Numbered from the stretch's first letter, positions 16,509 through 62,736 are shown. The stretch is DNA of 64,000 nucleotides from an uncultured Rickettsiales bacterium (GCA_964405685.1 CAYOOP010000001.1:270922-334921), one strand, 5' to 3'. Numbers and translations are program-made. Notes: generated by a model from the sequence alone, not told the origin.

Positions 16509-16582
16509 GCGGGTGTAGTTCAATGGTAGAACGGCAGCCTTCCAAGCTGCATACGAGGGTTCGATTCCCTTCACCCGCTCCA
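16509..16582 (+). tRNA. tRNA-Gly (anticodon UCC)
   Basis: Acceptor GCGGGTG/CACCCGC, anticodon loop CTTCCAA, T-arm GAGGG-TTCGATT-CCCTT, and T-CCA encoded. Confidence 0.93.
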
Positions 16583-16695
16583 CCCTTCGCCTACGGCTTC
16601 GGGTGGCTTACGCCACTTGCGTAAGACGCACGAAGGCCGTGCTTAGGCGAAGGAGTGTCCGTCGTAGCTCGCGAAGTGAGCGAAGTCGGACTATA
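16583..16695. repeat. Nested-hairpin structured element immediately 3' of tRNA-Gly
   Basis: CCTTCGCCTACGGC pairs with GCCGTGCTTAGGCGAAGG. Inner hairpin CTTACGC-CACTT-GCGTAAG, plus GTCCG...CGGAC. Confidence 0.4.
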
Positions 16696-16839
16696 TTGAC
16701 TGGGTCCATCTTTCCACCCGCTTCATCAAACACATCATCATAAATAATGGTATGTTTTACATCAATAATATAGATGTTTATTAAAATATTAACCATAAAG
16801 ATGGTATTATCGATAGGCAGTTAAACAAGGGATTCCATC

Positions 16840-17334
16840 ATGTCTGATAATTTGCCGTCATCGCGTCGAGAAATTAGACCTGCGCAAAACGCTCTACAGA
16901 AATCCGAATCTGATTGCGTTAAAAATGCCTCTATTAAATACGACAACACACTCGCTTCTGAGGGTAATAAATATCCTTCAGCGTGCCACAGTTTTGTGTT
17001 TGATATAGAGCTTGATCCAGGGCAGTGGCGCACAATGAATGCTGAACAACGCCAAGCCGTAAGGGATCATTTTGCAAAAATTATATATGAAGATATCCCG
17101 GCTACAGCAATGGAAAATCTAGATATACGTGATTATAACGATTCAAGCAAACCTGCGAAAAGTTTACAACGTAGCTTTTGTAGAGATGCAATTGATTTAG
17201 GTGGCAGACTAGTTTTAAGTGGTAGCGTTATGTTTTTTGATCACCAAGTGACAAATAAAGCAGCATTGCCAGGAGTAATTGGCAGCATCGAAGGAATGGG
17301 TTCTCAAGCACCCTCCCTCCGGTTAGGGTCATAA
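16840..17334 (+). CDS. Hypothetical protein (orphan, in an AT-rich segment)
   Basis: 164-aa ORF preceded by a very AT-rich 140-bp region. I see no recognisable domain. Confidence 0.5.
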   Translation: MSDNLPSSRREIRPAQNALQKSESDCVKNASIKYDNTLASEGNKYPSACHSFVFDIELDPGQWRTMNAEQRQAVRDHFAKIIYEDIPATAMENLDIRDYNDSSKPAKSLQRSFCRDAIDLGGRLVLSGSVMFFDHQVTNKAALPGVIGSIEGMGSQAPSLRLGS

Positions 17335-17395
17335 AAGCAATAACTCAAAATTCTTCACTTTTCCAGAATCTAGTTTAAATTTTCGTGACGCCTCA

Positions 17396-18100
17396 TTAGC
17401 TATTCGCCAACAGATAGAGCCCTATCGCACACGCGTTGGAAACATTCAAGCTTTCCATGCGCGAGGAGATGGGGAATTTGACGAGTTGGTCGCAGCGTTC
17501 AGCGACCAAGCGGCGCAAGCCCTCGCCTTCCGCGCCCATCACAAGCGCGGTGTTACGCTTCAGTTTGGCCTCCTGGAAGGTGGTTTTCGTGTGGCCGTCC
17601 AATCCCACCACCCAATAGCCTTTGTCTTTGAGTTCGAGCAGAGCGTTGGAAATATTGGTGACGTAGACCATGGGCACGATGTCGAGCGCGCCGCTGGCGG
17701 CTTTGGCGAGTACGCCGGATTCTTGCGGGGAGTGGCGTTCTTGGACGATGACACAGGCCACATCAAACGCGGCGGCGGTGCGCAGCATCGCGCCGACATT
17801 GTGGGGATCGGTAACCTGATCGAGCACCAAGATAGGTTTTTCGGACTTGGTGACGACATCATCAAGCGTGAGGGGCTCTAGGTTTTCGACTAGTGCTGCA
17901 ACTCCTTGATGTACAGCATCTTTTCCAACGTATTTTTCAATATCGGTTGGCTTGGCGATTTCGCATTTGAGTTTGCGGGTTTGCGCGAGAGCTTGTAGTT
18001 TGGGAGCCTGCTGATCACTCACCAATACGCGCTTAATGCGCCGCTCGGGGTGATTCAGCGCCGCTTCCACGCTATGAAAACCGTAGAGCCAATAGGTCAT
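17396..18100 (-). CDS. rlmB: 23S rRNA (guanosine-2'-O)-methyltransferase RlmB (TrmH/SpoU family)
   Basis: YGFHSVEAAL N-terminal substrate-binding domain, then LDQVTDPHNVGAMLRTAAAF, LVMGAEGEGLR and ESLNVSNACAI SpoU motifs. Confidence 0.85.
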   Translation of the reverse strand: MTYWLYGFHSVEAALNHPERRIKRVLVSDQQAPKLQALAQTRKLKCEIAKPTDIEKYVGKDAVHQGVAALVENLEPLTLDDVVTKSEKPILVLDQVTDPHNVGAMLRTAAAFDVACVIVQERHSPQESGVLAKAASGALDIVPMVYVTNISNALLELKDKGYWVVGLDGHTKTTFQEAKLKRNTALVMGAEGEGLRRLVAERCDQLVKFPISSRMESLNVSNACAIGLYLLANS

Positions 18101-18269: not shown

Positions 18270-18355
18270 GGTGGAGTGGCCGAGTGGTCAATGGCAGCAG
18301 ACTGTAAATCTGCCCGCGTAAGCGTTCGCTGGTTCAAATCCAGCCTCCACCACCA
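18270..18355 (+). tRNA. tRNA-Tyr (anticodon GUA)
   Basis: Acceptor GGTGGAG/CTCCACC, anticodon loop CTGTAAA, long variable arm, T-arm GCTGG-TTCAAAT-CCAGC, and A-CCA encoded. Confidence 0.93.
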
Positions 18356-18490
18356 TAACTTCGTTAAGCGTATCTATTTGTATTTAAATAATAGATATTG
18401 CTCCTTCAGTTGTAATAAAAGCTTAATTTTTATTATAAATAAGGCTGTGGTAGAATTGAGAGTGAACATCACTCTAACCGTAAAACTTCT

Positions 18491-20491
18491 ATGAGTACCA
18501 TACCCTACGAAGCATTATTGTGTCGCCAAACTCCTGACATTAAAACACGCGCCGTAGCGTTGCGGCAAAAAGTAATTGATGCGGTACAAACAGGCAAAAT
18601 TCCCGTAGTAAGCAATGATAGAAGGATGGAGTTTGAACCCGAACACGACACCATCATCTATCTAGCGCTTCATGAGCCATCATCCTTAAAAGATCATTTA
18701 GCCACCACACGCTCCACTGCGGGTCAGCGTGAAGCATTGGATGCCTTAGAAACAGAATACATCGCCTTACACCAACGTCTCAATAATGCGTGGCCTGAAA
18801 AGAAAGCATTGCTGAAGTTAGAGAAAGAAAGCATCGATTCTACCATTGCGAAATGGTTATCAGCAGAAGAAATTGGAAATAGTGAAGTAGTCAACAAAGC
18901 AGCATTGCACCTTAAACAATACCGTTCTTATAATCCCCCTCATCTTACACACAAGAAGTCTTTTGTAGAAATGATTGCAGAGGGAGAGAGTGTTAAGGCC
19001 CCCTATGAACAAATTATAAAAGATATTCTTGAAGAGTGGTCATGTCCTGGAAAGAGATTTACCCTTAAAAACCTTGCAACACATCTACTCTCAGGCAGCA
19101 CTGAATTATCTCAAAGAGAAATAGAGTTATGGCTTCAAAGCCCGGGTAAGGATGGCAAAATTCGTGACAAAGTAACCGAACAAGTCTGCAACGCGACAGG
19201 TATGAGCAATGAAGATGAGGCTATGTTTTGGCGTGTGGCGCGCGGGAATCCTTCTATCCAGATTGATAGCAATCTATCGGCAACGGAGGTTTATGAACAG
19301 CTCACGAAGAAAATTGGTGCTCCCATCTTTCGTCTCCATCGGATGATAGGATCCTATGAAGATGTTATGCATAATGGAAGCCGTAGCGAAGACAGAATTT
19401 TCCATATGCCTGAAGCGCAAACATTATTGTCTTTTGCGCAACCATCAAAGCCCTGGTTATCACAAACCGCAGATCCTAAACAATGGCGTCAGAATTGGCT
19501 GATTGCGAGAAAACTATCCGGTGACTCACATCCCAAATTATTTGAGGATATGATTATGGATGCCGTTGCTTCGGACAATCCACGCAAGACATTGCTCAAA
19601 AGTATTCTAAATAGATCCGGTATCCATCCCGAGACCACGGAATCATTGCAAGGAAAATGGCAACATGTGAACCCGGACGGGCAATATGGGATAGACCATG
19701 TAAAAGCTCTGCGCGTGGGTCAATCCAGACCACTTACACGTCTAGAAGCGCAAGTGATTGTAGATGGTGCCCGCGAAGCATGCCCAACCTTAAATGCGGC
19801 CGCACAAGAGACGTGTATTGAAATGCTGATGGACTGCCCGCCGCGCGATATTCTTATTGATCGCTACATTCATCAGATAGATGCCAGCGGGCATCCTGCA
19901 AAAGTGCCTCTTAAATCGACGCTTAAAACGATTGCCGACAGTGAGCAAAAAACATTGACGTCAAGAGATCGCAATCAAAGATTTGTGCCAGAAGTGACAG
20001 AAGAATTTCATGATATTCTCACAAAAAATGATAGATTAACGCACGTAGGAGCTCCTTTATTTGCCAATAAATTGGGGCTTGAGGGGCCTCGTCGCAGGAA
20101 ATTTCTAGTGAGAGCAAAAGGCATTGCTGAGCAGGATCCGGAAACGGTTATCGACGATGTGCTTGGTAATAAAATCTCAGCGGCAGCCGGCTTAACCACA
20201 TTGATGGAGCAAACCGGGCATACCCAAACTAGCTTTGCTAAGGTTGCAGGTGAAGATCCACGCACTATTATGAATTGGTGCAAAAAGGGGTTTTCTATGA
20301 AAACGGGACTGGCACAGCATTTAGCAAATGAACTTCACCGCCCTGATCTTGCCGAAAGGATTCAGAAAACGTTTTGTCGTCGCACCAAAATAAATGATTC
20401 TAGCTTTGAACAAGCCCAAACAGAACGGGTGCATCATTTCCAAAATCTTGTTGCAAGTCAGATTGATGCACTGGGTCAAAACAAGCGCTAA
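18491..20491 (+). CDS. Hypothetical 666-aa protein (islet cargo)
   Basis: Long uninterrupted ORF in AT-rich DNA. Contains helix-turn-helix-like stretches (e.g. TQTSFAKVAGEDPRTIMNWCKKG). I cannot assign a family. Confidence 0.7.
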   Translation: MSTIPYEALLCRQTPDIKTRAVALRQKVIDAVQTGKIPVVSNDRRMEFEPEHDTIIYLALHEPSSLKDHLATTRSTAGQREALDALETEYIALHQRLNNAWPEKKALLKLEKESIDSTIAKWLSAEEIGNSEVVNKAALHLKQYRSYNPPHLTHKKSFVEMIAEGESVKAPYEQIIKDILEEWSCPGKRFTLKNLATHLLSGSTELSQREIELWLQSPGKDGKIRDKVTEQVCNATGMSNEDEAMFWRVARGNPSIQIDSNLSATEVYEQLTKKIGAPIFRLHRMIGSYEDVMHNGSRSEDRIFHMPEAQTLLSFAQPSKPWLSQTADPKQWRQNWLIARKLSGDSHPKLFEDMIMDAVASDNPRKTLLKSILNRSGIHPETTESLQGKWQHVNPDGQYGIDHVKALRVGQSRPLTRLEAQVIVDGAREACPTLNAAAQETCIEMLMDCPPRDILIDRYIHQIDASGHPAKVPLKSTLKTIADSEQKTLTSRDRNQRFVPEVTEEFHDILTKNDRLTHVGAPLFANKLGLEGPRRRKFLVRAKGIAEQDPETVIDDVLGNKISAAAGLTTLMEQTGHTQTSFAKVAGEDPRTIMNWCKKGFSMKTGLAQHLANELHRPDLAERIQKTFCRRTKINDSSFEQAQTERVHHFQNLVASQIDALGQNKR

Positions 20492-20510
20492 CCCAAAGAC
20501 TTCCTATAAT

Positions 20511-20542
20511 GTTCGCTGGTTCAAATCCAGCCTCCACCACCA
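20511..20542 (+). repeat. Duplicated tRNA-Tyr 3' fragment (att-like right repeat)
   Basis: Identical to 18324-18355 over 32 bp. The flanking bases differ on both sides. Confidence 0.9.
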
Positions 20543-20619
20543 CGCTTCGCCCCGATGGGGCTACGTGTGGCGCTGCCACTTTTGCTAGACAAGTGGGTTG
20601 GTGGCGTTAGAGTCCTCCC

Positions 20620-21366
20620 ATGCACAATCTACTTCTCATCATTGAAGATGATATCCTGTTCTATCCGCAGTTTGTGGCACGGCTTATCCAACAGTCGCCG
20701 ATGCCGGTTGTAGGCATTATTATCGCGCGGGCGGCGGCCAAGCATAATCGCTATCGCCATGCGCTTAAAACCATTCGTTATTTTAAAATCGCCGAGCTGT
20801 TGAAGTTGCTGGTGTGGCACGCACGCGCAATGGCATCCGGCAATTCGGTCGCGCATGTAGCGCAAAAGCGGACTATCCCGGCCATCATTGCCAAGGGAAG
20901 CGTGAATACGCCGGAGATCATCGCATGGGTGAAGGAACGTAACCCAGATGTTATTTTTTCGGCGAGTCCGCTGATTGTCGGCACCCAGCTGCTCGCAATG
21001 GCGCCGCTTGCAGTCAATATGCATTTCTCGCTGCTGCCGGCGTATAAGGGCATCATGCCGCTGTTTCATGCGATGGCGCATGAAGAGACCATGGCGGGCA
21101 TTTCGCTGCATGAAATGACGGAGAAAATTGATGAGGGGGCGCTGGTATATCAGCGACCGGTGGCGCTAGACTATAACCGTTCGCTGATGGACAATTACAG
21201 AAATTTTTTCGGCTTGGCAGTGGAGTGTGTTATAGCGTTTTTAAACGATGTTAAAAACGGTAACCGCACGATGCCAACACCTTCCGGACAAGCGCCTTCT
21301 TATTTTCGCCATCCCGATGCCGACGCGTGGAAGCAATTTCGAACCAGGCGTGTGCCGTTTATATGA
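20620..21366 (+). CDS. Stand-alone formyltransferase (Fmt/ArnA N-domain-like)
   Basis: VNMHFSLLPAYKG (N/H of the catalytic triad, SLLP motif) and EKIDEGALVYQ (catalytic Asp region). Has no C-terminal Fmt or dehydrogenase domain. Confidence 0.75.
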   Translation: MHNLLLIIEDDILFYPQFVARLIQQSPMPVVGIIIARAAAKHNRYRHALKTIRYFKIAELLKLLVWHARAMASGNSVAHVAQKRTIPAIIAKGSVNTPEIIAWVKERNPDVIFSASPLIVGTQLLAMAPLAVNMHFSLLPAYKGIMPLFHAMAHEETMAGISLHEMTEKIDEGALVYQRPVALDYNRSLMDNYRNFFGLAVECVIAFLNDVKNGNRTMPTPSGQAPSYFRHPDADAWKQFRTRRVPFI

Positions 21367-22589
21367 TGCTGACCCCTAGGCTTCGGCTGTACACCAAGAA
21401 TATTTCCTACTGGCGCGCAGCGCAAGAATTGTTGGGTGCGGGCAACCCGGCGGCTATTGCGCGCACTGAGAAAATAATTGCCGACCATACCCATGCGCGT
21501 CACGCGGTGCTGACCTCGATGGGGCGAATGGCGATTTACGAAGGCTTGCGGGCGCTTGGTGAAACAGGTGAAATTATTGTTTCGCCGATTACCGTGCCAG
21601 AGGTGATTAGCCTCGTGGTGCTCGCTGGGTTCACACCCGTGTTTTGCGACGTGGCGCCGGGTGCGTGGAATATGGATGTAGAAAAAGTAGAAGCGTTGAT
21701 TACCGATAAAACTGTCGCGATTATGACCACGTATTTTTACGGCAATATGGGTAGTGCAAACGCAGTGCGGGTACTTTGCGATAAGCACGACCTATGGATG
21801 ATTGAAGATGCCGCGCAGGCAATCGGTGCGTGGCAAGATGGCAAGCACGCGGGGACGATTGGCGATTTCGGCATACTCAGTTTTAGCTATCCCAAAAATG
21901 TGACCTCGTTTTATGGTGGTTGCTTGGTAACCAATAGCGATGCAATTGCCGCACGGGTACGTAGTCAAATTGCGAACTATCCGCCGGTGGATAAAACCTG
22001 GCTCGCCAAAAAAGTGATGGGGTGTATTATTAAAGATGTGAGTACATTTTTCCCTGTGTTTCAATTGGTCGGGAGATTGATTCGTTACGGCTATGCCCAC
22101 GACATTCCCGCGATTAAAAAATTGGTGACGCAGGATTTAAATGAAGGCTTTACGCATATACCTCGGACCTATCTCACCCGAATTTCGCCGCAACAGGCAC
22201 AGGCGGTCGCCGATAAATGGCCGGAGGTGGATGAGGATGCTGCGCACCGGATTGCGTGCGCGGACATCTATGCGCGCGTGTTAAAAGATGTGCCGCAAGT
22301 CTTGTGCCCTGCGCTTCCTGGTGATCGTTCGCATACGTTTTTATATTTCCCGGTGCAGGTGCCGGATAAATATGCATTGCAGCATTATTTAATTGCGCAT
22401 TACTGCGACGTGGCTGTGCAACATGCGCAAAACTGCGCAGATCTGGACATCTATACACAATGGAAGCGCGAGTGCCCGAATGCGCGCGCAGCCTATGCGG
22501 GCACGCTGATGCTCCCGACCTATCGCGGGTTTCCGCTGAAGGAAGCGGAGCACTACGCGCAAACCATTCGAAAGTATTTTAACGCATGA
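21363..22589 (+). CDS. DegT/DnrJ/EryC1/StrS-family PLP-dependent sugar aminotransferase
   Basis: IEDAAQAIGA...GDFGILSFSYPKNVTSFYGG carries the family's conserved Lys context. ATGA overlap with the formyltransferase gene (ORF track start 21327). Confidence 0.85.
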   Translation: MMLTPRLRLYTKNISYWRAAQELLGAGNPAAIARTEKIIADHTHARHAVLTSMGRMAIYEGLRALGETGEIIVSPITVPEVISLVVLAGFTPVFCDVAPGAWNMDVEKVEALITDKTVAIMTTYFYGNMGSANAVRVLCDKHDLWMIEDAAQAIGAWQDGKHAGTIGDFGILSFSYPKNVTSFYGGCLVTNSDAIAARVRSQIANYPPVDKTWLAKKVMGCIIKDVSTFFPVFQLVGRLIRYGYAHDIPAIKKLVTQDLNEGFTHIPRTYLTRISPQQAQAVADKWPEVDEDAAHRIACADIYARVLKDVPQVLCPALPGDRSHTFLYFPVQVPDKYALQHYLIAHYCDVAVQHAQNCADLDIYTQWKRECPNARAAYAGTLMLPTYRGFPLKEAEHYAQTIRKYFNA

Positions 22590-24079
22590 CAATTATCATC
22601 GCCGGTTCTGGGCCTGCAGGCGCATTTGCCGCACTCGGTGCGCTCGAGGCGGGTGCGGATGTATTGATGATTGATGCGGGATTGGTGCCGGATGCTGCAG
22701 CGGCAACATTTAAAACGCGGCTCGCGGCAACGCCTTCGCAAGACTGGAGCACTGAGGACCGCGCGGCGCTTATGGGAGGTGCGATTTCAGGCACCAAGGG
22801 ACTCGCGCAAAAACGTCTGTTCGGATCGGATTTTGCAACGCGACCGTTGCAGGATTTTACCGAGCACCATTGCCGGATTATGCCGTCCTATGCGCTCGGT
22901 GGGCTTTCGAATGTGTGGGGTAGAGGTGTTGAGCCACCGTATGATAGAGAAGCCGAGCATTGGCCAGAACATGCAGCGTTTTTAAAATCGCTGCGCACGG
23001 TGCTTATGCACCTGCCCTTTTGCGCCGAGGTGGATAATCTTGCGGAAGTGTTGCCGGTGTTTACCAAGCCAAGCGCACCTCATGCGATTACTGCGGCGGC
23101 ACAAGCCTTGCTGAGCCATTGGAACGCACGGGCCGAGCAGCTGAATACTGATGGCATTCATTTCGGTAAAACGCGGTTGGCGCTCAATACCTCCACGTGC
23201 CAAAAATGCGGGATGTGTTTTTATGGCTGTGCGTATGATGCGATGTGGAGCAGTAGTGAGCTGATTGCGGCGTTGAAAAAACGCTATTCCAATTTCTCCT
23301 ATCGATCGGGCGTGTTGCTGAAGCGCTTTGCAGCAAGTGAGGCAGGTGTCGATGTAACGGTGGAATCTATCACCGAAAAAACGGAAACAACGTGGCAGGC
23401 GGCACGGCTTATTCTTGCTGCTGGCGCGCCGCAAACGACCGCGATTGCCATGCGAAGCTTAAGGATAGAAAAAGCGGTGCTTAAAAATAGCGATCTGATT
23501 CGCATTCCGTTTATCAGCCTGCGGCGTGCGCCGCTTGAGAGCAATTGTCATGCGCTTAGCCCGTTGACGCTCGCGATCAATCGGCGGGCGCTTTCTAAAA
23601 AAGCGATGGTGATGCATCTGTTCGGACAAAACCCAGCGATTGAGAATGCGGTGCTCTCCGCACTTCCGAAATGGGCCCATAGCATGGCGCGGAAATGTGT
23701 GACGCGGTTGTGGGTGGGGATGTGCTTTTTGCATTCCAGTGACTCAGGCAGGATTCTTGTGGAAGAACGTGATGGCACCATGCACTACACCGGACAGCGC
23801 AGAAAACAGGCACGAAACACTTACCTTAAACTGATGCTGTTTCTTGCATTGCGCATGTTTAAAACGGGACTAATACCACTGCCCGTTCCTGGCAGTCTCA
23901 CCCTGCCTGGCAGCTCGGTACACTACGGCGCATCGCTAGCTGTGGATGGGTATGGACGATTACAAGAACATGTTTACGTCGCGGATGCAAGCGGGTTGCC
24001 AGAGATTCCGGCGGGATCGTTTACGCTGTCTATTATGGCGCACGCGCACCGTGTGGGTGCTATGGTTGGCGCGGCTTGA
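22586..24079 (+). CDS. FAD-dependent oxidoreductase, GMC-like
   Basis: N-terminal IIIAGSGPAGAFAA dinucleotide fold, CQKCGMCFYGCAYDAMW motif and C-terminal VYVADASGLPEIPAGSFTLSIMAHAHRVG. This resembles the GMC oxidoreductase layout. Confidence 0.65.
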   Translation: MTIIIAGSGPAGAFAALGALEAGADVLMIDAGLVPDAAAATFKTRLAATPSQDWSTEDRAALMGGAISGTKGLAQKRLFGSDFATRPLQDFTEHHCRIMPSYALGGLSNVWGRGVEPPYDREAEHWPEHAAFLKSLRTVLMHLPFCAEVDNLAEVLPVFTKPSAPHAITAAAQALLSHWNARAEQLNTDGIHFGKTRLALNTSTCQKCGMCFYGCAYDAMWSSSELIAALKKRYSNFSYRSGVLLKRFAASEAGVDVTVESITEKTETTWQAARLILAAGAPQTTAIAMRSLRIEKAVLKNSDLIRIPFISLRRAPLESNCHALSPLTLAINRRALSKKAMVMHLFGQNPAIENAVLSALPKWAHSMARKCVTRLWVGMCFLHSSDSGRILVEERDGTMHYTGQRRKQARNTYLKLMLFLALRMFKTGLIPLPVPGSLTLPGSSVHYGASLAVDGYGRLQEHVYVADASGLPEIPAGSFTLSIMAHAHRVGAMVGAA

Positions 24080-24998
24080 GGTTGGGATTGTTTTGCATAT
24101 CGACCGTCAGGAAGAAAATCAAAAACTGAATTGCAAGAATAAGGCTGAGTGCGGAGAGCATGACCGTTCCGGAGGCACGCGCATGGCCGGTTGCAAGGGT
24201 AGCCATCCAGTTGATCGAACCATAAATGGTACCCAGCGTTCCCAGTACAAAGGCGAGCACTAGTGCTAGGGAACCTGCATTGAAATCGCGTACGAAATAG
24301 GTGTAGATAATCCGTTTGAAGGTATTGCAACTATGCTTACGCAGGAAACGCCAAATTTCGCGCAGCGGTTTTAAATTGCTTTTTTCATCGGCGTATTTAG
24401 CACGCATCGGAAATTCACGCACCACCGCACCCAGCAGATAAAGTTTGCACAGCATATCGGATTCGAAGAAATAGCGGTTGTCGATTTCGGCAAGATCCAG
24501 ATCTTCGAGCATGGGGCGCGAGATCGCCACGAATCCATTGGTCGGATCCATCAGATCCCAATAGCCGGAAGAGAGTTTGGTGAAAAATGAGAGCACGCCG
24601 TTACCCACCAAACGCGCCCAAGGCATGCCTTTTAAATAGCGCAAATAATAGAAGCGGTTGCCTTTGACGTAATCCGCACGGCCTTCGGCAATGGGTTTGA
24701 TTAATTCAAAAACTTGGTGCGTGGGCATCTGCCCGTCACCATCGATTTTAACAAAAATATCAGCATCGCTATGGGTGAGTGCATAGGCAAAACCAGCCTT
24801 CACAGCACCGCCGACGCCGAGGTTTTGCGGGTTGGTGAGCACGGTGACGTTGGGGAGATTTAGCTGTTCAATGAATGACCCGCTGGCTTCGGGGCAAGCG
24901 TCATCCACGCAAATAATAGCGACGTCAGGAAGGCTTTCCAATACATCCTTGATTTTGGATTTTACCTTATAGCACGGAATGATAGCGGCGATTTTCAT
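24060..24998 (-). CDS. Family 2 glycosyltransferase with C-terminal TM helices (ArnC/GtrB/DPM1-like polyprenyl-phosphate glycosyltransferase)
   Basis: KIAAIIPCYKV start, VDDACPE, KIDGDGQM (DxD) and two C-terminal TM helices. Size and architecture match ArnC-type enzymes. Confidence 0.82.
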   Translation of the reverse strand: MKIAAIIPCYKVKSKIKDVLESLPDVAIICVDDACPEASGSFIEQLNLPNVTVLTNPQNLGVGGAVKAGFAYALTHSDADIFVKIDGDGQMPTHQVFELIKPIAEGRADYVKGNRFYYLRYLKGMPWARLVGNGVLSFFTKLSSGYWDLMDPTNGFVAISRPMLEDLDLAEIDNRYFFESDMLCKLYLLGAVVREFPMRAKYADEKSNLKPLREIWRFLRKHSCNTFKRIIYTYFVRDFNAGSLALVLAFVLGTLGTIYGSINWMATLATGHARASGTVMLSALSLILAIQFLIFFLTVDMQNNPNLKPRQP

Positions 24999-25004
24999 AG
25001 GCGT

Positions 25005-27107
25005 TTAAAACCCCATATAGCTACGGCACGAGGGGAAATTGCGATCGATAAACCAACGCACAGCTTGACCGGATTGTACGAGACACAAGCCTGTAGTAGT
25101 GTTTTTGTCTTGGATAAAGTAAAGTGTCTCACTCCCGCGCGCAGCGGTTTGAACGTCGTAGTTATTCCCCAACGTTTTAACCCAAGGCACAATCGCCTCA
25201 CCCGGATAGTAGCGCCGCAACTCTGCGCCTCCTTTTACCGGATGGTGGGGCATGCCCATGTAAAAGGCTGAGGGCACCACATTGCCAAATGTGCCATAGG
25301 TTCTGCCCATGGGGGTAAATTCGCCTTGGGGCGAGGGCACGGGCAACAACCAGAAATCATTGTGCCAATTGATGGATTTAGAATAGGTTTTCGGAAGCGC
25401 GATGACGTTGGTGGCATTTTCCATGAGTTCATTTTTGGCCCATACATCCACAGCCGGAATAGCACGCAGCAGGGTATAAAAGGACATCAGATCATTGAAG
25501 TAGATGTTGACCCTGCCCTCTTTCAATTGATGCAGCTTGGGCACGACATCTTTTGCCATATGCGTTAGGCGATCGCCGCGGAAGATGTATTGCGGAATAT
25601 GATCGGCCAGGGTGATGAAGATAAAACAAGGCGGTAGCAGCAGTAACCAGGCAATCGCGCGTTGGATGCGGATATGATAGCGTTCGATTGCCTCCAGGGT
25701 GATGAGGAATGCTGGTAACAGCATTACTACGCCGATCATGAAATAGCGGCCAGTGCCCGACCAGAACATGAGCTTGACGCTGTAGACTGCCGTTGAAATT
25801 AAAAACAATGCCCAACATGCGGCTGCCAGGGGTTTGGATTTCGGGCGCGCTAAGAAAAGAGCGGCGAAGGCTACAATCGGAATCAATCCAAATTGCGAAT
25901 TTTCGCGCGTGAGGGAGAAAGGCATGAAGTATTCGATCAGCGCTGTGGAATCAAACACGCAACGCGAGGGCATTAAATCAATGCCGTTTCCAGGAATGTA
26001 CGAGGTGACGTGCAGGCGCAAAAAGGTGATGTAGTTGCGGATGCCGTCAATACCGAGCTCAAACAAGCGCAGATAAAAATGCGCCGCCGCGCAGCCCATA
26101 TCGCCATGCGATTTGTGATAGGCAGCAAGGCGTTTCATTTGCCCGTCAAAGGTAATGCCGTGGTTGGCGTTGGTGAGTTGGTCAGGTAGCAATGCTAGCA
26201 AGATGATCGGCACTAAGGCCACGAGCGCCAAGCCGATGACACGCGGGTGGAACCATTGCACCAAGCGTTCTTTGCCGCCAAAATAAAGAAGTAACATGAG
26301 TAGGGCACCGGGTAAAAAGATGCCGGTGGTTAGTTTGACCGAAACGGCAATGGCGCTGCATAGCAGTAAGAAAAATATCGCCCGGAAATCTAGCGGTTTG
26401 ACGATTAGCCACACGGCGGCGCGGGTGACGAGAAATAGTGTCAGTGCCTCTTCGTGGCCGCCGAGGCCGGAAAATAAAAATTGTGGTGCGGCGATGAATA
26501 GCGTGACCCAGAATAGGTGTTTGAGGGTGCGTTCGCGGCCAAACAAAAGCCAAAGATTGAGTAAGGAGGCAACCACCAGCACGGCGTTGATAATAGCATA
26601 AAAGATGGGGATTAGGTGCAGGGCGTGGATGGCGGTAAACACAACATAGTACACCGATGGGAAAAAATACATGACCGACAGGCTATCGACGTGCGAGGTT
26701 TCCCAGGCGGAGCCGGTTTTGGTGGCAAACACCATGCGGGCAAGTTTGACGCGTTGTTCATCCGCCGAATCGGGCGACATGAAACAAGCAAGCAGCACGA
26801 GACCGAGGACAATACCACCGATGGCGTAGTAATAAAACCGCGGGCCTTCGGCAGGGGCTTGGGTGGTGGGAGCGATGCGTGGGACACCGATTAAATGAAT
26901 GAACACGATGGTTGAGGCAGCAAAGCACCCGGCATAAAGCATGGGTGAGCCTAGTAGGCCGTAAAACGACAGCAGCATGGTAGTAAGAAACGCACCAAAA
27001 ATAGCGCTTTCGGCACCGCCGGTGATTGGCTCCGCGGCTCGGCACAGCCAATTTACGAAACGTTTGAGAATAGAAAACATGGCGGGACTTTGGCGTAAAT
27101 ACCCCAA
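25005..27107 (-). CDS. Large polytopic membrane protein with a roughly 200-aa C-terminal soluble domain (possible GT-C-fold glycosyltransferase)
   Basis: 700-aa ORF. More than 12 predicted hydrophobic helices over the first roughly 480 aa, then a soluble tail. Lies directly upstream of the GT2 gene and co-oriented with it. The function call is inferred from architecture only. Confidence 0.55.
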   Translation of the reverse strand: MGYLRQSPAMFSILKRFVNWLCRAAEPITGGAESAIFGAFLTTMLLSFYGLLGSPMLYAGCFAASTIVFIHLIGVPRIAPTTQAPAEGPRFYYYAIGGIVLGLVLLACFMSPDSADEQRVKLARMVFATKTGSAWETSHVDSLSVMYFFPSVYYVVFTAIHALHLIPIFYAIINAVLVVASLLNLWLLFGRERTLKHLFWVTLFIAAPQFLFSGLGGHEEALTLFLVTRAAVWLIVKPLDFRAIFFLLLCSAIAVSVKLTTGIFLPGALLMLLLYFGGKERLVQWFHPRVIGLALVALVPIILLALLPDQLTNANHGITFDGQMKRLAAYHKSHGDMGCAAAHFYLRLFELGIDGIRNYITFLRLHVTSYIPGNGIDLMPSRCVFDSTALIEYFMPFSLTRENSQFGLIPIVAFAALFLARPKSKPLAAACWALFLISTAVYSVKLMFWSGTGRYFMIGVVMLLPAFLITLEAIERYHIRIQRAIAWLLLLPPCFIFITLADHIPQYIFRGDRLTHMAKDVVPKLHQLKEGRVNIYFNDLMSFYTLLRAIPAVDVWAKNELMENATNVIALPKTYSKSINWHNDFWLLPVPSPQGEFTPMGRTYGTFGNVVPSAFYMGMPHHPVKGGAELRRYYPGEAIVPWVKTLGNNYDVQTAARGSETLYFIQDKNTTTGLCLVQSGQAVRWFIDRNFPSCRSYMGF

Positions 27108-27122
27108 AATAGCAACCAGGAT

Positions 27123-28781
27123 ATGCGAGACTTCGCACTTGGAAATGCGCTTTTTATCAGTATGCTGGCCCCCATGTTACTGGATGCTGTTTTCTTTCCT
27201 GTTTTCTTGGGTTGTGCCTATGTGCTGGGCATCGGGGCACTGCGCCTTTTTCCTGGAGATAGGGTGACGGAGCCGCTTTATCTCCCGTTTGTGGTTGCGT
27301 TTTTGACGTTGGGAAGCGTTGCCTTGGGTGTTAATTTTTTCACCGGTGTCGATTCGCTGGTGTATTATGAAATCATGGGCGCAATTGGTTTGGGGGGGAT
27401 TTTACAATTCCGAAAAACAGATTGGCAGCGCTTGTGGCCCCTGTTGCCATTTAGTCTTTTGTTGGTGCCACTCGCAGCCCAAATGCCAGCGGGTGCGGAT
27501 GCGGGATTGTACCATATTCCGCACCAGGTGTTAATTCGGGATGAGAAAATTATTTTTGGTCTCGCCAATCTTCATAGCCGTTATGGGTTTTCCTCCATGA
27601 TGGAATATGTGCTAGCGCCGCTATGGATTGGGGAGCAATTCAAGCTACTGTCCTATGCCCACGCTGCTTTTGTGGCGGCGTGGTTGTTGTTTTTGTGGGA
27701 GTGGATTTCGTCCTCCCAAAAAACAATCGCCGCGCTCGGATGGCTGACGCTGATTTCCATGCTGTGCTACTGTATGTATTTCGATTTTGGCTATACTTCG
27801 ACCGATACGCCGTCTGGCATTATGTTCGCCATCGCATTTTTAAATGGTGTCGCCCTGCTGCTGGGCGAAGGGCCCGTTAGCAGGCGGCAGCTTTTAGTGT
27901 TTTTTCTTTGCGCCGTGTTCGCATACACCTGCAAACTCAGCAACATCACCGTGGTGCTTTGGGCGGGATTTGTAGTGGCGAAACTGCTGCATCAGCGACG
28001 CATCGCTTGGAAGCCCTTGATGCAAGCTGCTGCTTTGCCTACGCTACTTATGAGTATGTGGTTGATGAAGAACTTTATTGTCAGCGGTTGCCTGCTTTAT
28101 CCAAGTGCGGGTACGTGTTTGGATGTGTCGTGGGCGGCGAAAGCGAATGCAATTGAAAATGCCAACGGCATCACCGCCTGGGCGCGCCACCCGCAGGATG
28201 ATTTGCGGCCACTGCACAGTTGGAATTGGTTGTGGGAGTGGTGGTGGCCGAACCAACGCGTCTTTTTAGTGTTTATGGCCGCCACCTTTACCGCCGTTGC
28301 GAGTGGCTACTGGGTGTTTTGCAAAACCGAGAAACATCACCGCCGCGATGTGATGTTGCCTGCCTTGGTCATCACCCTTCTGGGATTAGCGCTCTGGTTT
28401 TTCAAGGCACCAACCCCGCGGTTTGGGATTGGTGTGTTTATCATAGTGGTGCCGGTGGTGGTGGTAACGTTGTTTGGATTCCGTTGGACAGCGCACACGT
28501 GGCTGCTCAAGCTGCGGCTTGTTGTTCTGCTATTACTTGCGGCACGGCTTGGAATGATGGCAAATACGCATGTCATTCGCCATCTCAATTTAAATACAGA
28601 CATCGATATGATGCCGGCACCGATGGTGGAAGTAAAACTCGACAAAAACTTCGGATTCCGCCCGGCAGGCAACACACCGGGGGCGGATTGCATTTGTTGG
28701 ACCGTGCATTATTGCGCACCTGATGCACGCCCCCCCATCAGCGAAGCGCACGGTTATAAATTCTTCAAGCAGCCATTATAG
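27123..28781 (+). CDS. Large polytopic membrane protein (possible glycan polymerase, ligase or GT-C)
   Basis: 552-aa ORF, hydrophobic throughout, with a periplasmic-looking loop LYHIPHQVLIRDEKIIFGLANLHSRYGFSS. No confident family assignment. Confidence 0.5.
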   Translation: MRDFALGNALFISMLAPMLLDAVFFPVFLGCAYVLGIGALRLFPGDRVTEPLYLPFVVAFLTLGSVALGVNFFTGVDSLVYYEIMGAIGLGGILQFRKTDWQRLWPLLPFSLLLVPLAAQMPAGADAGLYHIPHQVLIRDEKIIFGLANLHSRYGFSSMMEYVLAPLWIGEQFKLLSYAHAAFVAAWLLFLWEWISSSQKTIAALGWLTLISMLCYCMYFDFGYTSTDTPSGIMFAIAFLNGVALLLGEGPVSRRQLLVFFLCAVFAYTCKLSNITVVLWAGFVVAKLLHQRRIAWKPLMQAAALPTLLMSMWLMKNFIVSGCLLYPSAGTCLDVSWAAKANAIENANGITAWARHPQDDLRPLHSWNWLWEWWWPNQRVFLVFMAATFTAVASGYWVFCKTEKHHRRDVMLPALVITLLGLALWFFKAPTPRFGIGVFIIVVPVVVVTLFGFRWTAHTWLLKLRLVVLLLLAARLGMMANTHVIRHLNLNTDIDMMPAPMVEVKLDKNFGFRPAGNTPGADCICWTVHYCAPDARPPISEAHGYKFFKQPL

Positions 28782-58910: not shown

Positions 58911-59373
58911 TTGCTGCTTCTTTTTGCTTCACGCCGGTAGACCCAAACCCGCCGGTGCCGCGTGCGGTTTCATCCAGGCTTGCAACGGGCGTAAAGGCGC
59001 TTTGCACCACCGGCGCAATCACCATTTGGGCAATGCGCATGCCGCGCTCAATCGTAAAAGGCTCTGCACTTAAATTCACCAAGATTACCTTTACTTCGCC
59101 GCGGTAATCCGCATCAATCGTGCCGGGGGAATTGAGTACCGTAATGCCGTTTTTGGCAGCCAGACCCGAACGTGGACGCACCTGTGCCTCAAACCCTTCG
59201 GGCAACGCCATCGCAAACCCACACGGCACCAGCGCGCGCTCCATAGGCCTCAGCGTCATCGGCGCATCAATCGCTGCGGGCAAATCCAGCCCGGCGCTGT
59301 GAGAAGTGGCATACGCCGGAAGCGGCAGGCCTTCGCCGTGGGGAAACACTGTAATACGAGTAGTTATGTCCAT
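58903..59373 (-). CDS. dut: dUTP diphosphatase
   Basis: [31 protein letters not shown] and GFGSTG. I chose internal ATG 59373. Confidence 0.93.
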
Positions 59374-60095
59374 TGTTCGATAATCTTTCGTGTAAGTTGT
59401 TCGGCGATTTTTTTCTTGCTGCCGTGCCAGGTTTCTGACGTGTCGGCGGTTATCCATAGCACCGTTGTTGCCTCAGCATCAAATATTTTTCCGTCCGAAA
59501 CGTCATTGGCAATCATCCAATCGCAGCCTTTGGCTTTGCGTTTTTGCTTAGCACGTGCCTCCAACTGTTCTGTCTCGGCTGCAAAACCAATCACCAGCTT
59601 GGGGCGCGGATTGCTTCTGGCGATGGCTTTTAAAATATCCGGGTTTTGCACCAGTTCTATGGCAGGCGCTGCATCTGTTTTCTTGATTTTCTGACGCGCT
59701 ACTTTCTTAGGCCGCCAGTCCGAAACCGCCGCTGCGCTGATGAAAATATCAACGGGCAATACGCTTTTGCACGCCGCCAGCATCTCTTTGGCGGTCGTCA
59801 CCTTAATCACACTCAATTGTTTCGGATCCGGAATGGAAACTGGGCCGGAGACCAAAATAACCTCCGCGCCTGCATCGCGCAGCGCCTCCGCAATCGCATG
59901 GCCTTGCTTGCCGGAGGAACGATTGCCAAGAAAACGCACAGGATCCAGCGGTTCGTGCGTGGGGCCGCTGGTGACGAGTACTTTTAAGCCTTTCAAGGAG
60001 TTCATACCCTTAAGAATATCATCGTAGCCTTCGGACTTTGCAAGCGCATTATGATTGTATTTTATATTTGACATTATGTATTTTATATCATACAA
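59364..60095 (-). CDS. coaB: Phosphopantothenate-cysteine ligase (CoaB domain as a separate ORF)
   Basis: [37 protein letters not shown] and GFAAET motifs of the Dfp C-terminal domain. The start codon is uncertain (candidates 60095, 60074, 60005). Confidence 0.85.
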
Positions 60096-60096
60096 T
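60068..60096 (+). promoter_or_regulatory. Sigma-70-like promoter for the toxin-antitoxin pair, embedded in operator-like repeats
   Basis: TTGACA (60068-60073), a 17-nt spacer, then TACAAT (60091-60096), 6 nt before ATG 60103. Flanked by the inverted repeat GATTGTAT/ATACAATC and two TGTATTTTATAT direct repeats 21 bp apart. Confidence 0.5.
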
Positions 60097-60102
60097 CAAA
60101 CG

Positions 60103-60399
60103 ATGTTCCAAATCCTTCAAACGACAGTGTTTGAAAAATGGTTGCGCGGTATGAGGGACAGGCGGGCGAAAGATCGTATCCTCGCGCGCCTGGTGCGTAT
60201 GGGTGCAGGAAACCTTGGGGACGTGAAGTCCGTGGGCGAGGGTGTAACCGAGGCGCGTATTGACTATGGGCCGGGCTATCGCCTCTATTTTATTCGCCAC
60301 AAGAAGACCGTGCTGGTGATGCTGGGTGGAGGAGATAAATCCTCACAAGCCAGAGATATTAAACGCGCCAAGGAATTGGCGAAGGGATGGGAGATATAA
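60103..60399 (+). CDS. Type II toxin, RelE/HigB superfamily ('addiction module killer protein' type)
   Basis: FEKWLRGMRDRRAKDRILARLVRMGAGNLGDVKSVGEGVTEARIDYGPGYRLYF....VLVMLGGGDKSSQARDIKRAKELA matches the killer-protein family pattern I recall (GN.GD.K.VGEGV.E.RID.GPGYR.YF, GGDKS.Q..DI..A). Confidence 0.85.
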   Translation: MFQILQTTVFEKWLRGMRDRRAKDRILARLVRMGAGNLGDVKSVGEGVTEARIDYGPGYRLYFIRHKKTVLVMLGGGDKSSQARDIKRAKELAKGWEI

Positions 60400-60690
60400 G
60401 TGATGAAAAAAACAAAAACCACCGTATTCGATGCAGCCGATTACCTCAAAACCGAACGCGATATGCTGGGGTTTTTAAGCGCCTGTTTTGAAGAAGCGGG
60501 GGATGATGCCGCCTATATTGCCGCTGCACTCGGCGTGGTTGCGCGCGCTAAGGGAATGACAAAACTGGCCAAAGAAACCGGCGTCACCCGTGCAGCGCTT
60601 TACCACGCACTGTCTAAAAAGGGGAATCCTGAATTCAGCACCGTGCTCAAGGTGATTCACGCGCTGGGCCTGAAACTGCAGGTGGCGTAA
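60400..60690 (+). CDS. Type II antitoxin, HTH 'addiction module antidote protein' (HigA-like)
   Basis: FDAADYLKTERDMLGFLSACFEEAGDDAAYIAAALGVVARAKGMTKLAKETGVTRAALYHALSKKGNPEFSTVLKVIHALGLKL is the family pattern. Abuts the toxin stop (GTG 60400 / ATG 60403). Confidence 0.85.
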   Translation: MMKKTKTTVFDAADYLKTERDMLGFLSACFEEAGDDAAYIAAALGVVARAKGMTKLAKETGVTRAALYHALSKKGNPEFSTVLKVIHALGLKLQVA

Positions 60691-60695
60691 AGCTT

Positions 60696-61109
60696 TTAGC
60701 GGGTCAATTGATTGGGAGAATCTTGTGCCACACGGTCACGGTGTGTGGTGGTTTCGACATGCGGCGTTTCATTCATGGGGGTGGGGTAACGGATTTCTTC
60801 GGCACCAAGTGCAGTGCGCTGCTTTTCGATTTCGGCGGCCTTATTTCTGCTGCTAAACCAAGATATCAAACCAGTAACTCCCCCAGCCAACCCTACCCAC
60901 GTAGCAACCGTATAAAATCCCATTCTGAAAGAAGACGGGGTTTTGTTCTTGAGTGTTTCTAGCTCCTTAACCGCACTCCCTGCAGCAGTGACTAAGGCAC
61001 CAGTCATTATTTGGCTATTTGAAGTATTCATATCATTACGCGTCTGCTCGGCTTGTTTTGCAAGTTTGTCGCGTTCAACGTCTAGCGGTGTTTCGTATAT
61101 TTTTGCCAT
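60696..61109 (-). CDS. Hypothetical protein with a central hydrophobic segment
   Basis: 137-aa ORF between coaC and the TA pair, on the coaC strand. Contains GFYTVATWVGLAGGVTGLISWF, a TM-like stretch. No family recognised. Confidence 0.45.
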   Translation of the reverse strand: MAKIYETPLDVERDKLAKQAEQTRNDMNTSNSQIMTGALVTAAGSAVKELETLKNKTPSSFRMGFYTVATWVGLAGGVTGLISWFSSRNKAAEIEKQRTALGAEEIRYPTPMNETPHVETTTHRDRVAQDSPNQLTR

Positions 61110-61153: not shown

Positions 61154-61678
61154 TTATGACAGAATCGCTTTCACAATCGCTTCCGGTTCACTCATGCGGC
61201 CGAAGCCCTCTTCCCCGCACGCAAGATCACCCTTGGCGGGGGCAATGATTTTTACACCATCTGCTTCAATTTGCTTGATATTGCGCTGGGTGGCCTTGTG
61301 TTCCCACATAGCCGCATTCATCGCCGGGGCCACAAAAATGGGGCAGCGGGCAGCAAGCAGCGCACAACTCGCCAGATCATCGGCCACGCCATGCGCCATT
61401 TTGGCGACGATATCGGCAGAAGCTGGAGCTACAAGTACACAGTCGGCCTCTCGAGAAAGGCGGATATGACCCATTTCCACTTCGTCTTTAAGGCTAAATA
61501 TGTCTTGATATACAGGGTGTTCAGAAAGTGCCGCGACACTTAATGGGGTTACAAATTCAGCCCCTCCGCGCGTTAAAATACAACGCACTTGCACTCCCCG
61601 CTTTTTCAGCAAGCGGATGATTTCAAGCGATTTATAGGCAGCAATGCTGCCGGTGATGATGAGCAAAATAGATTTCAT
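61154..61678 (-). CDS. coaC: Phosphopantothenoylcysteine decarboxylase (CoaC flavoprotein domain as a separate ORF)
   Basis: ILLIITGSIAAYKSLEIIRLL, VAPASADIVAKMAHGVADDL, APAMN..MW, and LACGEEGFGRMSEP at the end. This matches the Dfp N-terminal domain and stops where the linker normally starts. Confidence 0.88.
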   Translation of the reverse strand: MKSILLIITGSIAAYKSLEIIRLLKKRGVQVRCILTRGGAEFVTPLSVAALSEHPVYQDIFSLKDEVEMGHIRLSREADCVLVAPASADIVAKMAHGVADDLASCALLAARCPIFVAPAMNAAMWEHKATQRNIKQIEADGVKIIAPAKGDLACGEEGFGRMSEPEAIVKAILS

Positions 61679-61698
61679 GACAATTCCAATGACACCCC

Positions 61699-61727
61699 TT
61701 GCAAAACTGCGGTAATGCTAGTATATT
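61699..61727 (+). promoter_or_regulatory. Candidate promoter of the tmRNA gene
   Basis: TTGCAA (61699-61704), a 17-nt spacer, then TATATT (61722-61727), upstream of the tRNA-like acceptor piece. Confidence 0.4.
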
Positions 61728-61732
61728 AGTAG

Positions 61733-62058
61733 CTGTCACGCAAGTGGCTATGGCAATAAACGCTGCTTAGAATAGACGATTTGGACCCGGGGGCAGAGCC
61801 CGGCATCTCCACCTGATCCGGCAAAGCCGGATCAGGTGGGGATGAATCAGTTTCGACAGACGTAATAAAAATTCAGTTTTTGCCAAGCATGACACCGCTT
61901 TAAAGGGTCATTTTATAAATGCTAACGACAACGTTGCATTTGTTGCTGCTAACGACAACAACGTCGCTGCAGTTGCTGTAGCTGCCTAAGTGGCACTTCA
62001 GTAGCTCTTAGCTCAACGCGGTTTGGGGTGTACCGGGCAACAGAAACACCCCACTTTT
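61733..62058 (+). ncRNA. ssrA: Two-piece (circularly permuted) tmRNA gene: acceptor piece, excised hairpin, coding piece
   Basis: The upstream piece ends GGAC-CCGGG-GGCAGAG-CCCGG-CATCTCC-A-CC (T-arm plus 3' acceptor strand, to 61813). A hairpin spacer ACCTGATCCGGC-AAA-GCCGGATCAGGT follows. The downstream piece starts GGGGATG (61838) and pairs with CATCTCC, giving a G3:U70 wobble. Then come the UUCGAC motif and a tag ORF GCT AAC GAC AAC ... GCT GCC TAA. The 5' boundary is approximate. Confidence 0.8.
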
Positions 62059-62259: not shown

Positions 62260-62736
62260 ATGAGCGAAGACCAAATCCACTATTCTGAACTGATTGACAC
62301 CGCGATGCGTGGTGTCGTGCGCGAGGTGTTGCGCAAGATTCATAAAACTGGTCTGCCGGGTCAGCACCATTTTTATATTACGTTTTATACCAACCATCCG
62401 GATGTAGAAGTCTCTGAGTCGCTCAAAGTGCGCTATCCACGCGAGATGACGATTGTCCTGCAGCACCAGTTCTGGGATTTTGCGGTGGAAGACACATATT
62501 TTACCGTGACGCTAAGCTTCGGCGGCATTCCGGAAAAATTGGTAATTCCGTATGCAGCACTCGCAGCCTTTGCCGATCCAAGCATCAAATTCGGCCTGCA
62601 GTTCCAAACGAAGTGGGACGCGGCGGCTCTGCCTACCAGCCCACTGACATACGAGAACGAATCCAAGACTGAGCCCGCGGAAGAAGACGTTGGCTCTGCA
62701 GAAATCATCTCGCTCGACGCATTCCGCAAGAAATAA
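62260..62736 (+). CDS. sspB: ClpXP adaptor SspB (alphaproteobacterial type)
   Basis: MRGVVREVLRKIHKTGLPGQHHFYITF.T..P.V..S..L...YP.EMTIVLQHQFWD..V....F.V.LSF.G.PE.L.IPY.A...F.DPS..FGLQF matches the SspB family pattern. It has an acidic tail ending in a short basic motif. Confidence 0.8.
   Translation: MSEDQIHYSELIDTAMRGVVREVLRKIHKTGLPGQHHFYITFYTNHPDVEVSESLKVRYPREMTIVLQHQFWDFAVEDTYFTVTLSFGGIPEKLVIPYAALAAFADPSIKFGLQFQTKWDAAALPTSPLTYENESKTEPAEEDVGSAEIISLDAFRKK

Follow-up and report, generated by a model that had tools for sequence, protein, structure and literature searches.

Previously, an intact tDNA together with a displaced fragment of the same gene in direct orientation has been shown to be the defining signature of tDNA islands, which are made by tyrosine integrases (PMC4383910). 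Direct repeats and tRNA sites are general features of genomic islands (PMC2704930). A further class, the cis-mobilizable elements (CIMEs), lacks the genes for integration and transfer while keeping both attachment (att) sites, attL and attR, and the mobilization of such integrase-less elements in cis has been documented (PMC6323972; PMC5704250). The present study concerns a 2.2-kb islet at the tRNA-Tyr gene of an uncultured Rickettsiales bacterium. It lies in a stretch of 64,000 nucleotides (GCA_964405685.1, CAYOOP010000001.1:270922-334921), called the window here, from whose first letter all positions are counted. The islet is bounded by two exact copies of the last 32 nt of tRNA-Tyr, is foreign in composition and carries a single gene for a 666-aa protein. 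It is probably a non-autonomous, CIME-like genomic islet left behind by site-specific integration.

The tRNA-Tyr gene (anticodon GTA; 18270-18355, plus strand), the proposed target, is intact by ARAGORN and Rfam (RF00005, 61.7 bits), and its 3′ end is now provided by the left copy of the repeat (18324-18355, plus strand). The right copy, at 20511-20542 on the same strand, is the displaced 3′ fragment of tRNA-Tyr, and the two copies resemble attL and attR cores, respectively. A preliminary reading of the letters alone (the sequence-only reading) had noticed this recurrence with differing flanks, and exact-match and repeat searches as well as direct reading bore it out. Specifically, the window contains two exact copies of the 32-mer GTTCGCTGGTTCAAATCCAGCCTCCACCACCA and no further match with up to three mismatches, and none of 100 dinucleotide-preserving shuffles yielded one; no match is expected by chance. 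The repeat comprises 4 nt of the variable arm, the T-arm (GCTGG-TTCAAAT-CCAGC), the 3′ strand of the acceptor (CTCCACC), the discriminator A and the encoded CCA. In other words, the block of identity opens 4 nt before the T-stem and closes exactly at the end of the tRNA. This anatomy agrees with the attL/attR-type signature at a tRNA 3′ end that the same reading had proposed. A T-loop class of tRNA attachment sites was reportedly described by Williams (2002), and the extent of the islet's block of identity, T-arm through 3′ end, is in keeping with it.

The bases next to the two copies are unlike on both sides. The left copy is preceded by GCCCGCGTAAGC and followed on the islet side by TAACTTCGTTAAGCG or TAACTTCGTT, and the right copy is preceded by GACTTCCTATAAT or CCTATAAT and followed on the chromosome side by CGCTTCGCCCCGATGG or CGCTTCGCC. 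The deduced empty site (attB) consists of GCCCGCGTAAGC, the 32-mer and CGCTTCGCCCC, with CGCTTCGCCCCGATGGGGC on the 3′ side of the single tRNA-Tyr. The deduced junction of the circle (attP) consists of CCTATAAT, the 32-mer and TAACTTCGTT.

The right copy could also be the remnant of a tandem tRNA-Tyr that lost its 5′ part to an unrelated insertion or deletion. The locus has indeed been rearranged: ancestrally, rlmB faces away from tRNA-Tyr, which is followed by tRNA-Gly. This order is broken here, as rlmB now separates the two tRNA genes, and a copy of 30 nt from its 3′ end precedes tRNA-Gly. At the right copy, ARAGORN found no tRNA, nor did Rfam down to E ≤ 1. When the whole tRNA-Tyr was aligned locally to 21 kb of downstream DNA, the 32 nt alone were recovered, with no similarity to a tRNA 5′ half upstream of the right copy. 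These three results exclude the right 32-mer as part of a second tRNA gene, the case that the sequence-only reading had named as fatal to its proposal. We also compared the site with GTDB representatives matched by rlmB. The source organism, an alphaproteobacterium by its two-piece tmRNA, has no close relative among the matches listed (best rlmB identity 52%). Among these matches, rlmB and tRNA-Tyr are divergent neighbors, as here, in 73 related alphaproteobacterial loci, in 28 of which tRNA-Gly directly follows tRNA-Tyr. Neither two tRNA-Tyr genes nor a displaced 24-nt 3′ fragment is present in any of these 73 listed loci; in 43 of them, 2.5 kb or more of the downstream DNA is covered. This absence speaks against a tandem remnant and marks the duplication as particular to this lineage. 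Such a remnant is also at odds with a block of identity running from 4 nt before the T-stem to exactly the CCA, and with foreign composition that fills exactly the interval between the repeats. We consider it very improbable.

The DNA between the repeat copies is clearly foreign. It measures 2,155 bp, so that the right copy is displaced by 2,187 bp, and it is AT-richer than its surroundings, as first noted by eye: its GC content is 0.434 versus 0.524 and 0.525 in the 10 kb to the left and right, respectively. Counted per 100 nt, GC drops from 0.56 to 0.27 straight after the tRNA and returns to 0.53 to 0.56 straight after the right copy. Furthermore, the GC content at third codon positions (GC3) of the single open reading frame (ORF) is 0.388, compared with 0.584 ± 0.041 in 39 other genes of the window (z about −4.7), and the dinucleotide signature distance of the islet reaches the 97th percentile among windows of equal size. 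Thus, the compositional boundaries coincide with the repeats. The strongly deviant GC3 suggests that amelioration is not far advanced. The perfect conservation of the repeats had been taken as an argument against old decay, and that argument is weak. The left copy is fixed by selection on the tRNA, so the only clock is the right copy, whose 32 neutral bases carry little information on age; their identity is compatible with long residence.

The cargo gene runs from 18491 to 20491 on the plus strand in the ORF list, its start at 18491 correcting the sequence-only reading. Upstream of it lies the left non-coding end (18356-18490, plus strand), 135 nt of 27 to 33% GC. A spacer of 19 nt (20492-20510, plus strand) separates the cargo stop codon from the right repeat copy, and these two segments are the sole non-coding DNA of the islet. 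Two small palindromes, both perfect, occur in the left end: TATCTATT/AATAGATA (18371-18397) and AGAGTGA/TCACTCT (18459-18475). They are candidates for a promoter or operator or for leftover arm sites. No inverted repeat linking the two ends of the islet was found. Native chromosomal DNA of 53 to 56% GC resumes at 20543-20619 (plus strand). It holds a terminator-like hairpin, GTGGCGCTGCCAC, at 20567-20579, followed by TTTTG. This hairpin may be the original terminator of tRNA-Tyr, moved 2.2 kb away by the insertion.

A search for mobility genes was made with Pfam on gene-like ORFs of at least 180 aa and on selected smaller ORFs at the ends of the 64-kb window. None of the ORFs that were scanned encodes an integrase, resolvase, transposase, Rep or relaxase domain. 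The scanned genes are housekeeping genes, with an rlmB-like SpoU methyltransferase directly to the left of the islet and secF, ribF, mutL, purH, hisGD and others farther away. The ORF list and the Pfam scan agree with the initial description of the islet as one 666-aa ORF without integrase, excisionase or replication genes; genes for transfer are absent as well, and the single ORF has none of these domains.

The arrangement fits a simple scenario. A small circle of foreign DNA, or a bigger element that shrank later, would have entered the 3′ part of tRNA-Tyr by site-specific recombination of the tyrosine-integrase type, with the crossover within the segment from the T-arm to the CCA. The incoming element would have brought its own 32-nt copy, so that a functional tRNA was rebuilt on the left (attL) and the original 3′ fragment was pushed to the right (attR). 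What remains would be both att cores and one cargo gene, fixed on its own and movable only with a matching integrase from elsewhere. In this form it would correspond to a CIME or to a tDNA island in decay. We infer an integrase mechanism, loss of the integrase and immobility at present. The loss of the integrase may reflect a deletion within the element or, following accretion, the excision of a tandem partner; alternatively, the islet could have been captured as a passenger.

Several observations weigh against this scenario. The ORFs scanned over the 64 kb include no integrase of matching specificity. The interior of the islet has no recognizable remnant of an integrase or of any other mobility gene; an origin from a larger integrative and conjugative element (ICE), integrative and mobilizable element (IME) or prophage is therefore assumed rather than shown. 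The 135 and 19 nt of non-coding DNA are all the room left for arm-type sites. Neither an empty site nor an excised circle, a second copy or a relative bearing attP turned up in searches of the JGI metagenomes and IMG/VR. Specifically, the attB/attR junction CTCCACCACCACGCTTCGCCCCGATGGGGC had no match in the JGI metagenomes, and the 32-mer had none in IMG/VR and none in the JGI metagenomes. Finally, the homologues of the cargo do not lie on tRNA islets; a single one is found near a tyrosine recombinase gene, which is frameshifted.

The identity of both att cores, and a GC content that has not drifted toward that of the host, would also suit an element that is still active. In this case, the islet would be a minimal, single-gene "cassette" that excises and re-integrates with the help of an integrase from another part of the genome or from a helper phage or ICE, either in trans or by cis accretion. 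The documented cis mobilization of CIMEs lends this some plausibility. However, neither a helper nor a second copy, an attP form or an empty site was seen in the JGI metagenomes or IMG/VR, and the identity of the repeats carries little weight, as the left copy is conserved by tRNA function. Moreover, relatives of the cargo sit in fixed, syntenic chromosomal slots, and there is almost no non-coding DNA for arm sites. An active element thus appears unlikely. A bolder form of the idea, which we regard as quite unlikely, takes the islet to rank among the smallest integrative elements that function. A module of one gene and 2.2 kb, it would form a circle, depend wholly on an integrase in trans to enter and leave the T-arm site of tRNA-Tyr, and ferry a fast-evolving helix-turn-helix (HTH) protein. 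If this were true, the HTH protein would benefit the element, for example by rewiring the regulation of the host or of competitor elements.

The sole other assemblies of the source organism, three Logan runs from one project, raise a different question. In these, the islet forms a contig of its own (2,215 bp) with the 32-mer at either end, where the flanking contigs also stop. Logan assemblies use k = 31 and therefore necessarily break at a 32-nt repeat, so the integrated, excised and empty states are indistinguishable in them. As such a graph is blind to whether the islet is integrated or episomal, it could accommodate an assembly artifact in which a 2.19-kb circular episome sharing the 32-mer was threaded into the chromosomal contig. 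However, any ordinary read is long enough to cross a 32-nt repeat, and in the deposited contig of 493,818 bp the islet is integrated. A Rep-like domain for the upkeep of a plasmid is missing from the ORF, and an episome with a tRNA 3′ end would itself amount to the proposed kind of attP element. An artifact is therefore extremely improbable.

How does the non-autonomous islet compare with the elements catalogued so far? By the Islander definition of a tDNA island, it has the intact tRNA gene at one end and, at the other, the displaced 3′ fragment as a direct repeat, and its composition differs from that of the chromosome. In contrast to Islander entries, it has no tyrosine integrase inside; it therefore falls outside that collection, and Islander's own filter would reject it. 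With the tRNA and tmRNA (transfer-messenger RNA) islands that carry tyrosine integrases (P4-like elements and ICEs), it shares the block of identity from the T-arm to the CCA and the foreign composition, whereas these canonical islands usually span 10 to 200 kb and the islet is far smaller. At less than 10 kb, it fits the term "islet." The closest likeness is to the CIMEs related to ICESt1 and ICESt3 of Streptococcus (ICEberg 2.0), which, like the islet, have att cores at the 3′ end of the target and carry cargo only. Genes for integration and transfer are likewise absent. In the islet, the attL- and attR-like cores are identical, and any arm-type sites needed for recombination would have to lie in the 135 and 19 nt of non-coding DNA. 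Unlike those CIMEs, the islet has no known parent ICE or IME family and no cognate integrase, its host is an alphaproteobacterium, and with one gene in 2.2 kb it is unusually small.

Other classes were considered and rejected. A transposon or miniature inverted-repeat transposable element (MITE) does not fit, because terminal inverted repeats are absent and the duplication is 32 nt rather than 2 to 15 bp and coincides with the 3′ end of the tRNA. Phage satellites, such as P4-like elements, phage-inducible chromosomal islands (PICIs) and PICI-like elements (PLEs), span 5 to 20 kb and carry their own integrase together with replication or primase genes and genes for helper interference or packaging, whereas the islet has one gene in 2.2 kb. 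An integron cassette or a XerCD-dependent integrative mobile element exploiting Xer (IMEX) was set aside on reading the sequence of the boundaries, which are direct copies of a tRNA end and not attC or dif sites.

The cargo gene encodes a member of a family that is very rare and fast-evolving. A word-indexed search matched the 666-aa protein to itself alone, and HMMER against 1.84 billion representatives recovered seven clusters, namely the protein itself and six relatives. P0002 (40% identity) and P0003 (33%) match over the full length, P0004 (49%) matches as a C-terminal fragment, and P0005 to P0007 (about 20%) are distant full-length relatives. No significant family was found for the 666-aa protein in Pfam, PHROGs or the PADLOC models of defense systems. 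Its PHROG matches are weak and are to transcriptional regulators only. Four of the seven family members match Pfam HTH_3 (best E 2.8e-4, below the gathering threshold), and the family profile gives an E of 0.056 against the 434 repressor.

An AlphaFold2 model built from the alignment of the seven sequences is all-alpha, with a mean predicted local distance difference test (pLDDT) score of 82.6. Foldseek searches of the PDB and BFVD with this model gave just short local matches to HTH domains of the XRE/HigA/CI type (probability 0.97 to 0.99 over 60 to 100 columns, global E above 0.1). Thus, in the model, the one recognizable part of the protein appears to be a C-terminal XRE/HigA-type HTH domain at about aa 546 to 630. 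A separate model of the central ~445 residues (aa 100-545) had no meaningful match in the PDB. The data lend no support to an array of several HTH domains: internal profile-profile similarities are weak, segment-wise Pfam scans gave nothing significant, and the central model is the unmatched one just described. In the comparison with XRE/Cro-CI HTH proteins such as HigA antitoxins and phage repressors, the predicted C-terminal domain (about 85 aa) shows local structural overlap with HigA, NGO0477 and HTH proteins of phages. Unlike these, the cargo protein is 666 aa long, and the ~545 residues before the domain form helical modules without any fold or family match. It also has neither a toxin partner nor a peptidase domain.

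Since the 666-aa ORF is the sole gene between the repeats and appears to include a DNA-binding HTH, its product might be taken for a site-specific recombinase or transposase of a new kind and the islet for autonomous. One distant homologue near a tyrosine recombinase gene could be added in favor. Yet the predicted protein is all-alpha, without a match to a recombinase, DDE or HUH fold. The six full-length members of the family share 31 invariant residues, none of which is Tyr or His; they lack a conserved catalytic Tyr/His or Ser set, and the R-H-R-Y set is absent. When examined as a tyrosine recombinase, the protein showed neither the R-K-H-R-H/W-Y set nor the catalytic fold, and no integrase appears among the top 50 Foldseek matches listed. 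The all-alpha model, the local matches to HTH domains only and the missing R-H-R-Y set together make the 666-aa ORF very unlikely to be the integrase. Furthermore, the homologues have no flanking repeats or tRNAs, two of them occupy a conserved slot between rnd and a pseudopilin-like gene, and no match exists in phage or plasmid collections. We therefore give next to no credence to a recombinase. According to the model, the cargo is most probably a DNA-binding or regulatory protein.

P0002 and P0003 share one slot in two related organisms, in the order aspS ... rnd, X, pseudopilin-like gene, uvrB, where X denotes the cargo relative. In the two copies of the slot, the X proteins (encoded at L082, 2304-4277, and L083, 3902-5941) are 40% identical and the flanking proteins 78 to 84% identical. 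The cargo family thus diverges very quickly, or gets replaced, in a fixed chromosomal position. P0007 lies between the nuo operon and rpsL-rpsG-fusA-tuf, amid other ORFans. P0006 (L085, 1876-3858) lies 880 bp downstream of a tyrosine recombinase gene (7-996) that is split by a frameshift. This recombinase consists of a SAM-like N-terminal domain and Phage_integrase; the GC content of the segment is below that of the rest of the contig, and the contig begins inside the gene. P0004 is encoded on L089, a contig of 39% GC, and is followed by another ORF; as L089 bears the closest partial relative, its GC content would fit an AT-richer donor. At none of the loci just named is there a tRNA gene or a flanking direct repeat. 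No homologue of the cargo was found in the plasmid and phage collections (tblastn against phages gave no match). Since the homologues stand in ordinary chromosomal contexts that do not look mobile, the cargo gene is not the hallmark of a family of mobile cassettes; here, it is simply cargo.

The present case illustrates that a tRNA gene with a displaced fragment can precisely flag horizontally acquired DNA even where mobility genes are no longer present, a class of element that island finders relying on an integrase discard. The mechanism of integration is textbook and opens no long-standing question; the most interesting part is the rare, fast-evolving cargo protein. The islet provides a dated-by-context entry to a very rare and rapidly diverging family with a predicted C-terminal HTH of the XRE type.

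To the right of the islet, at 20620-28781, lies a gene cluster of host-like composition that resembles Arn-type clusters for lipid A/lipopolysaccharide (LPS) modification. Its members are a formyltransferase, a DegT aminotransferase, a GT2 glycosyltransferase, a 497-aa protein without a Pfam match, and 700-aa and 552-aa proteins without a Pfam match at E ≤ 1e-5, the latter carrying a precomputed DUF8201 mark.

To the left, tRNA-Gly(TCC) at 16509-16582 opens an AT-rich outlier stretch (16509-17395) with an ORFan at 16840-17334 (plus strand, 164 aa). The GC3 of this ORFan (0.303) is the lowest in the window, and it has no Pfam family and a weak PHROG match. Just upstream, 17 nt before tRNA-Gly, the segment 16462-16491 is a 30-nt copy (26 of 30 positions) of the 3′ coding end of rlmB (17421-17450) in the opposite orientation, with an alignment score of 40 versus 16.5 ± 2.3 in shuffles. 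This copy and the moved tRNA-Gly suggest a past duplication or inversion at the tRNA locus. Another tRNA gene, tRNA-Ser(TGA), stands in the segment 6923-9471, where it is followed by an AlkB-like 2-oxoglutarate-Fe(II) oxygenase and an AAA_14/DUF4143 ATPase; this segment has a slightly lower GC content (0.47). No displaced fragment of tRNA-Gly or tRNA-Ser was found, and it is possible that the tRNA-Gly stretch is an older islet without a surviving repeat.

Near the far end of the window, the two halves of coaBC lie about 1 kb apart, with the flavoprotein (CoaC) at 61154-61678 and the DFP (CoaB) half at 59364-60095, both on the minus strand. On the opposite strand, the gap holds genes for a Gp49/HigB-like toxin (60055-60399) and an antidote with an HTH of the HI1420 type (60400-60690), and it also contains a 137-aa ORFan (60696-61109). 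Beyond coaBC, a two-piece (permuted) alphaproteobacterial tmRNA at 61695-62055 was missed by ARAGORN and scored 206 bits with Rfam, and sspB follows just downstream of it at 62260-62736.

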